A stretch of DNA of 63,849 bases, counting the filler, from Ferroacidibacillus organovorans (lineage in GTDB: Bacteria; Bacillota; Bacilli; Alicyclobacillales; SLC66), in the NCBI RefSeq assembly GCF_001642725.1. It is 6 parts of 6 records of this genome, joined end to end, with 100 filler letters (N's around TTAATTAATTAA, not from the genome) between each part and the next. Parts side by side here need not be neighbours in the genome. Positions count along the whole stretch, not along the records: positions 24,482 to 35,612 come from NZ_LSUQ01000072.1; positions 35,713 to 46,702 come from NZ_LSUQ01000073.1; 4 more parts are not named here. One strand, written 5' to 3'. The position numbers were made by a program. Of this stretch, positions 33,001-36,000 are shown piece by piece. The stretch's first letter is position 1. Every line of letters begins with the position of its first letter.

Positions 33001-36000
33001 TTAATCGGTTGTGCCATCACTACCGACAGACTCTCCGTGAAGAATATCTGATTGAAATACCAACGCCTAATTCAGATCCCAAAGAAATTGCCGACATACT
33101 GAAGAGAAATGGTGCGGGCAAGTCATTTTATGCGATGTCATGGAATCCCGACATCGACGGAAAACATTTGTCCATTGACGAGGCTCTGGATGCGGTGACC
33201 ACGATTACCGAAATTGGACACGAACATCAATGCCATCGGGGCCTCGCTTATAGTCAATGCGTTCAATCAGCAGTTTTGCGAGTCGATTTCTCTCCTTGAC
33301 ATCGACGCGTGCTTCCCAAGCCGATTTGAATGCATCGAACCTTTGCACCCGCAGCGCGCGCGTCAGTTCGGCGCATCCATCAAGGTGATCGCGTAGCTGA
33401 TAGATTTCGTTCTCCTTTTTCACCATCAGGGTCCTCAAACTCTCCAGTCGTGTGGTGTAGTCTTGTTTGGAGAGATCGCCCATCACGAACAGGTCCTGCA
33501 ACCGGTTCACCCCTTCTCTCAGGCGTTCGAGTTCAGCCTCCTTCGTTTGTAACAGACACTCTGACACCAGAACGGGTTCCTCGGCATCTGCAGGCATTTG
33601 GAGGAGTTCCGTTTCATATTGCCGCATACTTTCGAACACGGCGGTTTCTACAGGCTCGAGTTCAATGCCCGGATTGCCGCAGATGATCCCGTCGTTGCCC
33701 GGTCTTTGGCATTTCTTGACGAGGGTTCTGCCGTTTTCTTTCGGCTGAAACTTCAGCGAGGAACCGCACCGGCCACAATGGAGGAGACCGGAGAGAAAGT
33801 AGGTTCCGTGCCTTGAATGCTTGGGCTGAACGCGACGCCCTTCCAAGAGTTTGATGATTTGCAGATGTTCAGCCGGTGTCTTCACGGCAGGGTGTGCGTT
33901 TTCGACGATGATCCAATTTTCTCTGGGGATCACTTTGAAGGGCGCTGCCTGCCGCTTTTTATGCAGTCCACCGTTGGTCTTCCCATACACTACGCGTCCC
34001 AAGTGGACTTCGTTGATGATCAGCCGATACAGTACGCTGTCCGACCAACGTGCTCCTTTTGGAGAGGGGACAGTGCGGCGGTTGAGCTCTGCGCAGACCG
34101 CGCTGCAGGTTTCACCGCTTAAAATTTGATCTTTGATAAAACGATAGGTCTCTAATTTCGCAGGATCAATCTGCAGGCTGTGGACGTCTGCGTTGTATAC
34201 GTAGGGAAATGGGGCCGGACCGTTCGTCCAGTGGCCTAGGCGAGCGCCAATCTTCTTGCCGCGCTGGAACCGCTTCTTAATCATCCGGTACTCATACCTG
34301 GCGAACACGCCTTCGATGTCCGTCATGAGTTCTTGGTCCTCGTCGTTCAAGTCATAGACACGTGTCGGCGTGACCACGACCGTGTTGGAGCGCTTGAGAA
34401 TTTTCTCGATCCGCGCGCGGTCCTCTTTGTCGCCCCGACTGAGGCGATCATAGTCGACCACGACGACCGCATCGTAGAAGTCGTTTTCGACGTCGCTGAG
34501 CAGGCGTTTGAATTCGGGCCGGAATTCAATGCTGTCGGAACTGCCGATTTCCCGGTAGATCACATAGCGCCAAGTGTTTTGGCGAGCGAGATCGGTGAGG
34601 GCGGTTTCGTGTTTGAGCAAAACGTCTTCCTCGCCGTCCGAATCATCGCGACTCTTGCGCAGATAGATGGCCACTTCGTAGATTTTCTTGGGTTCCATGG
34701 TGGTATCACCTCGATTCGTGGCATCATGTGTTCCTTCCTTTTCAGCTTTGCTCTGGACGGTGAACGAGTCAACGGCAACGAATGGAGAGACCGCGGGAGT
34801 TAAGGCTGCGGATGAAAGGATGGGTATGGTCTTGGATCAGCCCCGAAAGAATACTCGGGGCGTCTGGTTCACGGGATCCAACTGGGATCGATGAGTCGCA
34901 TCATGAGTGGATACAAAGCACTACGGAAGCTTTCCACGGCGGCAGTTGAGGGCTCGTTACTGGTCACGCTTATGGTGAGTTTCCCGTGCTGAAGGACCAT
35001 TGTCTTGGCTGGACCGGGTTTGACTAGGGAGGCGGGCTCGTTGACGGGCTCGACGAACGACGCGTCTGTTGGTGAGGGCATGGGGACACCTCCTGCATTT
35101 GATGTGACGGGGTCAGGGTGGACGTCGACCTAAGCGCGGGAGCAGCGATGAAATAGTGGCAAATTCAGCGTACAAGTTTTATGGTCGGCATGGTGCCATC
35201 ATCGTGACCGGAGCGTGCCAATAAGCCAGGCACACGTGCGCAAACTGCCGACATGCGCGCACCGACGCTGGGTGGTAGAATTATCCGTAGAACATTCAGT
35301 TTGGTGTTTCTACGGAGTGCATCTCAACGCACGCGGGCAAGCTGAGCACGTGAGAATGAATTCCAGGGAGGAAGATGCTCTATGTCAAACGATGCGCAGA
35401 GCCACAAACACACCAACCGCCTGATCCACGAAAAGTCGCCTTACTTACTCCAACACGCGCACAATCCCGTCGACTGGTACCCATGGGGCCCAGAGGCGTT
35501 CCAAAAGGCCGCCCGTGAATCGAAGGCAGTATTCCTCTCCATTGGCTATTCGTAGCCCTGCGGGGCTACGAATAGCTGTATACGCTGAAAGTGGAGTAGT
35601 TTATCGACCTGTNNNNNNNNNNNNNNNNNNNNNNNNNNNNNNNNNNNNNNNNNNNNTTAATTAATTAANNNNNNNNNNNNNNNNNNNNNNNNNNNNNNNN
35701 NNNNNNNNNNNNGTGAAGTAGGAACCGTGAGTTGATTCTAGCCTCTGCGTTTCATTAACGTGGGGGCTATTTTACGCTTACCCAACTCCCGATCACGCCA
35801 CCGGGGCGCACCAACCGCGTCATTTCCGGGATGGATAGTTTGAGATCTGTAAAGTGCAAGAATCCTGTACCGAGCACCACGTCGAAGGAACCTGCGTCAA
35901 AGGGCAATGATTCTGCTCGTCCGTTCATAAATTCAATCCAATCAATCTGTAACGACCGCTGCTTTGTTCGGGCGCGCGCTAGCATACCCGTTGATGGGTC

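Follow-up and report, generated by a model that had tools for sequence, protein, structure and literature searches.

In staphylococci, Ccr proteins, which are large serine recombinases, insert SCCmec and the other SCC elements at the 3' end of rlmH (orfX), while in spore formers intervening elements lie in spsM (SPbeta, with SprA) and in sigK (skin, with SpoIVCA); according to the usual rules of large serine recombinases (LSRs), attP and an attR-like site do not form a permitted pair. Programmed translational bypassing is established, in the portions of the literature consulted, only for T4-type phages and some yeast mitochondria; the features that define it in T4 gene 60, whose sequence reads GGA TAG CC TTCG GG CTA ... 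GAG-6 nt-GGA, are those given in a preprint (bioRxiv 10.1101/2022.08.31.505936). A search of the literature returned neither a case of bypassing on a bacterial chromosome nor a link of bypassing to serine recombinases.

The stretch of DNA analysed here (the window, 63,849 nucleotides) consists of contigs of Ferroacidibacillus organovorans (GCF_001642725.1) joined end to end, the locus of interest being contig C72, at positions 24482-35612. Its sequence suggests that an LSR attachment arm is here probably embedded in a programmed translational-bypass cassette. A wider proposal, for which the chances appear to us about even, is that a whole bacterial order expresses a chromosomal gene, yyaL, by bypassing a gap of 33-61 nt, that the cassette was built independently of T4 gene 60 on the same plan, and that LSR islands spread the cassette within their attachment (att) site, which would enable targeting of the middle of an open reading frame (ORF) without gene loss, and unlimited stacking. 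The relevant features are the following.

24482..35612, no strand: contig C72, right-hand part of one island, with cargo, LSR and module, ending inside the att core (contig mapping, Pfam, PADLOC).
28965..30608, plus strand: caspase-like cargo gene, 547 aa (PF00656, E 2.4e-19; PADLOC 'caspase', E 4e-18).
33205..34698, minus strand: large serine recombinase, 497 aa, intact (PF00239, PF07508, PF13408).
34872..35081, minus strand: small ORF of 70 aa, same strand as the LSR and upstream of it, without Pfam match.
35261..35381, plus strand: stretch resembling a promoter, with the module's 5' UTR and ribosome-binding site, common to the C54 module.
35382..35552, plus strand: yyaL 5' module of 57 codons, the last being the candidate take-off codon TCG at 35550-35552 (translation; PF03190 on paralogous modules).
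35553..35606, plus strand: gap cassette, 54 nt (sequence, hairpin pair counts, anti-SD profile, comparison with T4 gene 60).
35553-35555, plus strand: TAG stop of the cassette (sequence).
35545-35558 and 35563-35576, plus strand: arms of the hairpin, with loop TGCG at 35559-35562 (sequence, pair counts).
35593-35596, plus strand: SD-like GGAG (anti-SD profile).
35604-35606, plus strand: candidate landing codon TCG (sequence).
35607..35612, plus strand: ACCTGT, opening hexamer of the shared core (ACC TGT CAC|TG), where the contig breaks.

The C72 recombinase is assigned to the LSRs by its domain content: the catalytic resolvase domain (PF00239, E 3.7e-20, residues 9-155) is followed on its C-terminal side by a Recombinase domain (PF07508, E 3.1e-14) and a zinc ribbon (Zn_ribbon_recom, PF13408, E 1.6e-8), and the nearest solved structure is that of SPbeta SprA/YokA (E 6e-32, residues 8-320 aligned). 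By tblastn the genome holds six LSRs of this family and two fragments (C56:15007-15354 and C45:18900-18980), the first-pass annotation having rightly recognised the family and counted five members: C72, C56, C46 and C69 each have a full-length copy, C68 begins with a partial one, and the sixth copy, on C59 and previously unlisted, carries three in-frame stops. The family members are 62-89% identical to one another and the remaining recombinases of the genome at most 31%, exactly as first reported. For the small ORF ahead of the C72 LSR, tblastn gave weak relatives (33-37% identity), which lie upstream of the C59 and C56 LSRs. As for the cargo, the Dsr1, IetA/IetS, HamB-like (helicase), HEPN, Mrr-like (nuclease), PD-(D/E)xK (PDDEXK_2), caspase-like, Qat (QatABCD) and DISARM (DrmA/DrmE) genes already described were recovered by PADLOC or Pfam, which also identified type I RM and a STAND NTPase. 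Transfer genes, which had been announced as Tcp-type, are present on C63 (TcpC, TcpE, AAA_10) and on C56 and C59 (Replic_Relax and a TrwB-like protein); on C8, for which they had also been claimed, the first 40 kb showed none; C72 itself has none by Pfam or PADLOC.

The 5' pieces of yyaL, of which six copies had been noted, are indeed present and number seven (on C72, C54, C86, C59, C8, C68 and C83); the C72 piece and the start of C86, formerly equated, are separate copies with 92.9% identity over 154 nt. The islands of the LSR family and all seven modules share the core GACCTGTCAC|TG, and contigs do break or switch at this one core, as the first-pass annotation stated: C72, C86 and C83 end at it, C56 and C69 start at it, and the overlap between C83 and C69 is 38 nt. 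Each of the seven pieces leads into GACCTGTCACTG, with a single mismatch in C68. The junctions are shared up to the core and then continue, again in agreement with the earlier description, into the yyaL body (C54) or into a mirrored arm (C59, C68 and C8, the C8 arms matching at 19/19 positions); at C68 two arm types are combined in a hybrid junction. What had been overlooked is that a TAG closes every 5' piece, that of C54 included, and that an insert of 51-54 nt follows before body or core. The module does not, then, simply supply a new 5' end to the gene: 33-61 nt that include stop codons intervene before the body, so that expression of yyaL needs either recoding or re-initiation.

Upstream of the module, the stretch 35261..35381, common to the C72 and C54 modules, includes GGTAGAATTAT and CCAGGGAGGAA and presumably acts as their promoter; a comparison of upstream synteny found no conserved upstream neighbour of yyaL. 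The junctions show that integration displaces the resident 5' end and sets the incoming module beside the yyaL body. That each island brings its own 5' module, and that one LSR family mobilises the islands to one core in yyaL, is supported. Displaced modules are decaying (L156 is frameshifted, C59 carries W25L and C68 A19V), and mismatches in the apical stem are confined to displaced copies.

A seamless join between module and yyaL was found in no case. After codon 57 (TCG) comes a TAG inside a UNCG-capped hairpin, followed in order by a spacer, an SD-like GGAG, 5-9 nt, a TCG, CCG, TGG or GCG codon and ACC TGY CAY TGG, the beginning of the TCHWCHVM sequence; the whole gap measures 33-61 nt. 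Both TCG TAG and the hairpin (loops UGCG, UUCG, CUCG or UACG) occur in 49/49 distinct cassettes, and all 35 gaps that adjoin a body, here called active, open with TAG. Of the hairpin cells, 94.4% are paired, compared to 30-48% when the partners are slid, and one pair covaries from U-A to C-G in 6 sequences; in cassettes of the 54-nt type the hairpin has 14-16 bp and is longer than the T4 stem. Independently of gap length, the window with the strongest anti-SD match closes 4-8 nt ahead of the landing codon in 35/35 cassettes, as scored with a generic anti-SD string, the 16S 3' end having been missed by a pattern search of the assembly. The landing codon equals the take-off codon (TCG) in 21/35 active cassettes and differs in the others (CCG in 7, TGG in 5, GCG in 2), the body-adjacent cassette of the F. 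organovorans genome being unmatched, with CCG; a tRNA-Ser(CGA) gene is present in the genome. Spare TCG triplets within the gap are weakly depleted (3/30 versus 8.6 expected), and no nascent-peptide signal was identified.

The 3' half of the C72 cassette doubles as a putative P-type LSR arm: GGAGTA, at -23..-18 in the P arm, has its mirror image, TACTCC, at +18..+23 of P', while the native B arm carries GGNTAY at -18..-13, and in the junction sequences the left sides are the same through CAY TG and the right sides diverge at the next base. Since the SD-like GGAGTA is at the same time a mirrored LSR arm in the LSR-linked cassettes, DNA binding could explain its conservation there. Between cassettes there are 0-6 differences in 54 positions, at a module divergence of 33-60% in synonymous sites.

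The gap pattern is present in 42 of the 64 genomes of the host order, with 0 reversed-pattern controls, and an uninterrupted yyaL junction in only 5/64; in the control set, made of distant yyaL matches to the module alignment in other phyla, the gap occurs in 0/80 homologs (80 retained of at least 602), all of them uninterrupted. Three cassettes were found outside the order. Some gap-bearing genomes have no LSR of the C72 family; in three of these (G026, G022 and G036) a single module adjoins the body. In one genus (g10) six species have a common 33-nt cassette, with body dN/dS of 0.09-0.13 at dS 0.23-1.0 and module dN of 0-0.06; across the 35 distinct active modules the median dN/dS is 0.083, and in the eight codons of TCHWCHVM 6/6 variable columns are third codon positions. 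Module, body and the TCHWCHV codons are under purifying selection, which speaks for a working gene despite the interruption. Two species of one genus have unlike active modules, and two families with 40% divergence of their yyaL bodies at nonsynonymous sites share an identical 51-nt cassette.

On these observations C72 is the right end of one LSR-mobilised island, several members of the family being probably Tcp-type conjugative elements. The islands integrate inside the thioredoxin-like yyaL, in the CxxC codons, where the crossover probably falls on the TG of CAC|TG, and each element has at its right end a self-contained module, in which a putative promoter and a ribosome-binding site precede yyaL codons 1-57 and the cassette of 33-61 nt. 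Ribosomes translating the module probably leave at UCG-UAG, slide to the far side of the gap and land on the codon preceding ACC, so that the product would be one YyaL chain, as for phage T4 gene 60. A serine integrase needs a P arm unlike the B arm, and therefore an element that restores a gene cut in the middle of its ORF must put foreign DNA into the coding sequence; the cassette would reconcile such a P arm with an intact target gene. The new module-core-body junction may then be reused by the next element, as is seen in relatives and inferred for F. organovorans; this reuse would let islands with defence cargo accumulate and displaced modules decay.

Serial accretion at yyaL, as proposed by the first-pass annotation, is borne out on contiguous DNA of relatives, the order of the islands being unreadable in the F. 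organovorans draft. In two complete chromosomes (G050 and G056) the arrangement is module-ICE-module-ICE-module-yyaL, with the modules in direct orientation, an LSR and a TcpC gene in every interval (one TcpC per stacked island) and the last module adjoining the sole yyaL body; G033 has three modules inside 9 kb on one contig, and serial stacking is likewise contiguous in G038 and G028. In G050, G056 and G033 LSR islands have accreted in tandem, with an own LSR and an att repeat for each junction. A native attL, in which an uninterrupted 5' end is joined at the core to element DNA, is present in G015 and G008, and hybrid junctions, such as a 54-type arm with a 51-type P', point to the core as the place of crossover. 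As the sole route of stacking, homologous recombination within the module was rejected, since it would leave the resident cassette at the body and the hybrid junctions show the opposite.

In F. organovorans itself stacking is deduced from these relatives because the internal junctions all coincide with contig ends or fall within repeats, and for this genome only it is possible, although rather doubtful, that the module-core-P' junctions are the attP of several excised or plasmid-like circles, or of one amplified element, instead of a chromosomal stack, the breaks arising from shared repeats. The C8 and C59 arms are mirrored as in a true attP, no Logan contig bridges the core in four runs of one sample (L001:12944-13071, uncovered in all four, was given no weight), and reverse-complemented C56 together with the left part of C54 resembles one element of ~30 kb with both ends defined (HsdM at the C56 start, HsdS/HsdR at the C54 start). 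Moreover, the mean word depth of the Logan contigs, which does not equal copy number, is 53, 99, 52 and 9 on the island side of C54 and 5.9, 7.6, 4 and 2.9 on its body side, that is 3-13 times higher, so that extra copies (circles or amplification) are an alternative for some junctions. Nevertheless, the chromosomal genes lgt, YIEGIA and copA lie on the module side of the C8 junction, on a 97.7-kb contig; the hybrid of two arm types in C68 is not expected from the attP of a single element; a genome of the same genus (G001) has six modules with hybrid junctions; and, besides the true stacks on complete chromosomes of relatives, the assembly contamination of 0.38% also speaks for a chromosomal stack. 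The same low contamination, and the fact that the four best-matching runs represent one sample with one organism label, led us to discard a strain mixture in the assembly.

Bypassing has also to be weighed against other readings of the interrupted gene. Unlikely, in our view, is a split gene, in which translation would terminate at the module UAG, re-initiation behind the SD-like motif would yield the body as a second polypeptide, and this would assemble non-covalently with the 57-aa piece. Separate initiation of the body is possible where an in-frame ATG or GTG lies behind that motif, which is the case in only 5/35 active cassettes (GGAG, 6 nt and ATG directly before the landing codon in L138, L150, L148 and L165; an in-frame GTG in L158) and in 2/3 of the cassettes from outside the order, which read ATG-CCG or ATG-TCG before ACN; however, 20/35 active cassettes have no canonical or near-cognate in-frame start (ATG, GTG, TTG, CTG or ATH) after the last stop, and in L141 and L163 a stop codon immediately precedes the landing codon. 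In the start-less cassettes the first in-frame ATG is the M of CHVM, past the CxxC, yet TCHWCHV varies at third positions only. The cut would also separate strand 1 from the active-site helix in a thioredoxin fold. A precedent for splitting is the T4-type element of Campylobacter phages, of which a split form lacking a bypass cassette is reported (bioRxiv 10.1101/2022.08.31.505936).

It is highly improbable that yyaL is inactivated wherever the cassette is present, module and hairpin being relics, or a terminator or insulator travelling with the recombinase site: despite a TAG and a strong hairpin immediately 3' of the module, and a gene dispensable enough to be absent from some relatives (no yyaL match in 7/41), the bodies are intact in every full-length match among the relatives searched, body dN/dS stays at 0.09-0.13 in cassette-bearing species diverged to dS ~1, active modules are under purifying selection and displaced ones decay, and no T-run lies 3' of the hairpin. 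Very improbable is also a hairpin that acts on DNA, as a palindrome to be bound by an accessory factor or a directionality factor of the LSR, and not as an RNA recoding signal. Indeed, five of its pairs vary solely by G-U wobbles of the sense strand (26 cells), which on the other strand are C-A mismatches, a shortened hairpin is kept in genomes lacking a C72-family LSR, and it always includes the stop together with the last sense codon; these facts stand against its position just outside the P arm, with which it travels, and the small conserved ORF upstream of several LSRs. Stop-codon readthrough or a variant genetic code were rejected because 12/35 active gaps, with lengths not divisible by 3, would shift the frame, and many in-frame gaps contain a second stop; a self-splicing intron or an intein was rejected because the gaps have just 33-61 nt, with stop codons inside, and no Rfam match (none in L001:12500-13100 at E up to 1).

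Translational bypassing of the yyaL gap, if true, would be a rare decoding event outside phages, with dozens of natural cassette variants (in gap length from 33 to 61 nt, landing match and stem length) available for testing the rules of bypass. The yyaL islands also show how defence islands can grow step by step at one locus, and recombinase, module and cassette might together serve as a toolkit for repeated insertion into an ORF without gene loss.

Among the systems described, the intervening elements SPbeta and skin resemble the yyaL islands in being LSR elements within a coding sequence, and SprA is the nearest solved relative of the C72 LSR; they differ in that the gene stays broken until excision, with no replacement gene end and no stacking. 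SCC elements share with the yyaL islands LSR insertion at one site of a conserved chromosomal gene whose function is kept, every insertion leaving a site for the next element and thus giving composite tandem islands; unlike the yyaL site, at codon 58-61 of ~690 and in the catalytic CxxC, the SCC site is near the stop codon and involves no recoding, and only the yyaL elements each bring a promoter, 57 codons and a gap cassette. The mitochondrial 'Byp' elements of Magnusiomyces capitatus are described as short (27-55 nt) mobile inserts in ORFs that are bypassed in translation; they are mitochondrial and occupy many sites, an unassigned sense codon and not a stop lies behind the take-off codon, and they are not known to be linked to a site-specific recombinase.

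The closest likeness is to T4 gene 60, with its MobA homing-endonuclease element. In both cases a mobile element brings the cassette into a conserved gene, a UAG stop lies directly behind the take-off codon, the take-off codon lies within the 5' arm of a stem-loop (with a CC-UUCG-GG cap in T4, the yyaL cassette reading TCG TAG CCC T[T/G]CG GGG CTA), a purine-rich mini-SD lies few nt before the landing codon (5-7 nt by the T4 criterion), and the gap, of 50 nt in T4 and 33-61 nt in yyaL, is frame-independent. The differences concern the host gene and the take-off codon (Ser UCG in yyaL, Gly or Asp in T4), the mobile element (an LSR island in yyaL, an HNH homing endonuclease in T4), the landing codon, unmatched in 14/35 yyaL cassettes, and the setting, T4 being a phage and the putative yyaL cassette lying on a bacterial chromosome. 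Descent from the MobA/topoisomerase cassette was rejected, as gene and mobile element differ and the likeness is limited to the ~16-nt tip of the stem-loop; for this reason the yyaL cassette is classed as one that would work like gene 60 and not as a member of its family, and it differs further in that the yyaL gap is also a putative recombinase arm.

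The locus under study is the right end of contig C72 (the whole contig being window 24482-35612), one of the six contigs joined in the window out of a 3.03-Mb assembly of 98 contigs (completeness 96.8%, contamination 0.38%), and carries one intact recombinase gene:

33205-34698, minus strand, large serine recombinase (LSR), intact, 497 aa, with Resolvase, Recombinase and zinc-ribbon domains

The nearest solved structure is that of SPbeta SprA/YokA (E 6e-32). By tblastn, paralogs are found in this genome on C56, C59, C46 and C69, together with a truncated copy at the start of C68 and two fragments; family members are 62-89% identical among themselves, the remaining recombinases of the genome reaching at most 31%. 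The five members listed by the first-pass annotation stand, but the list lacked the two fragments and the C59 copy (L002 11490-12980), a pseudogene interrupted by three in-frame stops. One of the two fragments, 27 N-terminal residues of an LSR of the family (85% identical), is isolated on C45 (L012 18900-18980) beside chromosomal-looking genes. A 70-aa ORF upstream of the C72 gene (window 34872-35081, minus strand) may encode a regulator or directionality factor; weak relatives of it precede the LSRs of C59 and C56.

The module, made up of yyaL codons 1-57 and the putative signals upstream of them, is present in seven copies (C72, C54, C86, C59, C8, C68 and C83); the first-pass annotation had rightly described multiple diverged copies, but counted six and mistook the distinct pieces of C72 and C86 for one. 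Its observation of a shared core at contig breaks or switches is borne out: GACCTGTCACTG lies downstream of all seven modules, three contigs ending and two beginning there. Beyond the core, C54 enters the yyaL body (the rest of the gene), while C59, C68 and C8 enter a mirrored arm and then element DNA; C83 and C69 overlap by 38 nt. The defence cargo named beside the recombinases or modules was likewise recovered (Qat, parts of DISARM, IetA/IetS, Dsr1, a HamB-like helicase, HEPN, an Mrr-like nuclease and a caspase-like protein), as were type I RM and a STAND NTPase. The leftmost junction, where chromosomal genes meet Qat/DISARM, is on C8 and the rightmost on C54; no order of the five between them is readable from the assembly. 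The element to which C56 (reverse complement) belongs probably continues into the left part of C54, for a total of about 30 kb; the hsdM / hsdS-hsdR operon is divided between the two contig ends. Upstream of the C86 module lie a group II intron reverse transcriptase/maturase gene (L008 5305-7332) and a second maturase fragment (L008 7633-8250). In public sequencing data, the locus is best matched by four small runs, all from a single sample with one organism label; none of their Logan contigs spans the core, and one terminates precisely at it on C54 (L001 12400-13400), where the mean word depth is 53, 99, 52 and 9 on the island side and 5.9, 7.6, 4 and 2.9 on the body side. This 3-13x excess, contig depth not being equal to copy number, leaves room for additional copies of the C54-side element.

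The claim that each module provides a new yyaL 5' end holds for the 57 codons themselves, but a TAG and a gap intervene, and none of the seven modules of this genome is fused in frame to anything downstream. The module ends in ...SIGYS, its last codon (TCG, the take-off codon) being immediately followed by TAG, which lies within the perfect hairpin GCTATTCGTAGCCC-tgcg-GGGCTACGAATAGC; a stretch of some 25 nt with GGAG in it then leads to a TCG, CCG or TGG codon (the landing codon), followed by ACC TGT CAC TGG TGT CAC GTC ATG (TCHWCHVM). On C54, an insert of 54 nt containing two in-frame stops lies between the module and the sole yyaL body of the genome. On comparative sequence evidence, we propose that such inserts are candidate programmed translational-bypass cassettes, built into a recombinase attachment site and conserved across a bacterial order, a more surprising content of the locus than island accretion.

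The hairpin is present in 49/49 distinct cassettes; its 5' arm takes in the final sense codon together with the stop, and its loop is, with few exceptions, UGCG, UUCG, CUCG or UACG. Across 41 sequences 94.4% of cells pair, versus 30-48% for slid partners; the change of the Tyr wobble position from U-A to C-G in six sequences, and the variation of five further pairs solely by sense-strand G-U, point to an RNA structure, not a DNA palindrome. In all 35 active (body-adjacent) cassettes the strongest window for a generic anti-SD string ends 4-8 nt 5' of the landing codon, independently of gap length; the landing codon is TCG, identical to the take-off codon, in 21, CCG in 7, TGG in 5 and GCG in 2. 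Genomes with 33-60% divergence at the synonymous sites of the module differ by 0-6 of the 54 positions of the non-coding cassette, which has no family match in Rfam. In the MFE fold of C54 (L001 12851-12945; -40.5 kcal/mol, z -5.25), an outer helix around the take-off hairpin joins the SD-like GUGGAG to a CUCCAU in the module.

The gap is a clade trait and not a peculiarity of the C72/C54 locus. Homologs of the yyaL body occur in 34/41 relatives, and nearly all of 30 loci among the matches listed are interrupted in this way and between the same two codons; the pattern of stop, hairpin and core is found in 42/64 genomes of the order (reversed control, 0/64), only five of the 64 having an uninterrupted junction. 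Among 401 genomes sampled from the class, three outside the order carry the cassette, and the 80 yyaL homologs taken from at least 602 of other phyla are all uninterrupted. Three genomes (G026, G022 and G036) have a single body-adjacent module without an LSR of the C72-type family. At the same Ser|Thr boundary, G002 (L025) and G034 (L029) have a 20-nt gap without hairpin (TCG TGA... and TCC TAA...), which shifts the frame by 2 and may mean that the cassette is reduced or the gene dead.

Judged from substitution patterns, the interrupted gene is maintained by selection. Among six species of one genus sharing a 33-nt cassette, the body has a dN/dS of 0.09-0.13 (dS up to about 1) and the modules a dN of 0-0.06; dN/dS has a median of 0.083 over 35 distinct active modules. 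Within the eight codons from the gap to the first Met, all six variable columns are third codon positions. These codons are out of reach for ordinary decoding: 12/35 active gaps are not multiples of three and all 35 start with TAG. As to separate initiation of the body, 20/35 active cassettes have no canonical or near-cognate in-frame start after the last stop, and 5/35 have an in-frame ATG or GTG. An in-frame ATG directly 5' of the landing codon, 6-10 nt behind an SD-like motif, is seen at L138, L150, L148 and L165, and likewise at G172:C41:3739-3798 and G359:C1:2098641-2098702; in such ATG-bearing cassettes the body may have an initiation of its own, and the system may exist there in a split-gene variant.

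A reason for a bypassed gap is suggested by the attachment arms. An element-type (P) arm makes up the 3' half of the gap, its GGAGTA at -23..-18 having a mirror image in P', TACTCC at +18..+23; the native (B) arm carries GGNTAY at -18..-13. With a seamless 5' yyaL copy, the P arm would become a B arm; its placement inside a bypassed gap would avoid this conversion.

Serial tandem accretion at yyaL, as proposed by the first-pass annotation, is supported in relatives, but is only plausible in this genome, with its five unordered junctions. G015 and G008 have a native attL, in which a divergent 5' end without interruption meets P' at the core; the body-adjacent module of G008 is of element type. 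In the complete chromosome of G038, a module is followed by 58 kb with a decayed LSR, a second module and the body; those of G056 and G050 have three modules each in direct orientation, with an LSR and a TcpC gene in every inter-module interval and the last module adjoining the sole body. Smaller stacks occur in G033 (three modules in 9 kb) and G028 (two in 1.6 kb). Left junctions consist of the resident cassette and the incoming P', the incoming cassette being placed at the body; the crossover therefore falls at the core and not inside the module. The active module of this genome differs from that of its congener G001, which shares an identical 51-nt cassette with G032, of a different family. 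Displaced modules decay. The C59 module, beside the pseudogene LSR, has W25L at an otherwise invariant residue and an extra TCG in its gap. Two cassettes of G007 (C24:3609-3672 and 5250-5313), 1.6 kb apart, are in inverted relative orientation; the other contigs seen with several cassettes have them all in direct orientation.

The record of phage T4 gene 60 reads ...GAT GGA TAG CC TTCG GG CTATC ... AAGAGATTATT GGA TTA. According to sections 3, 10, 16 and 17 of a preprint (bioRxiv 10.1101/2022.08.31.505936), gene 60 bypass is defined by a take-off codon that is followed by a stop and lies within the 5' arm of a stem-loop with a CC-UUCG-GG tip, a mini-SD 5-7 nt 5' of a matched landing codon, and carriage of the cassette by a mobile element; the preprint also indicates that P-site re-pairing tolerates some latitude, with larger deviations in yeast mitochondria. 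The yyaL cassette has every one of these features except the strict match of take-off and landing codons, and on this likeness of layout we read it as working like T4 gene 60, and not as a member of its family by descent.
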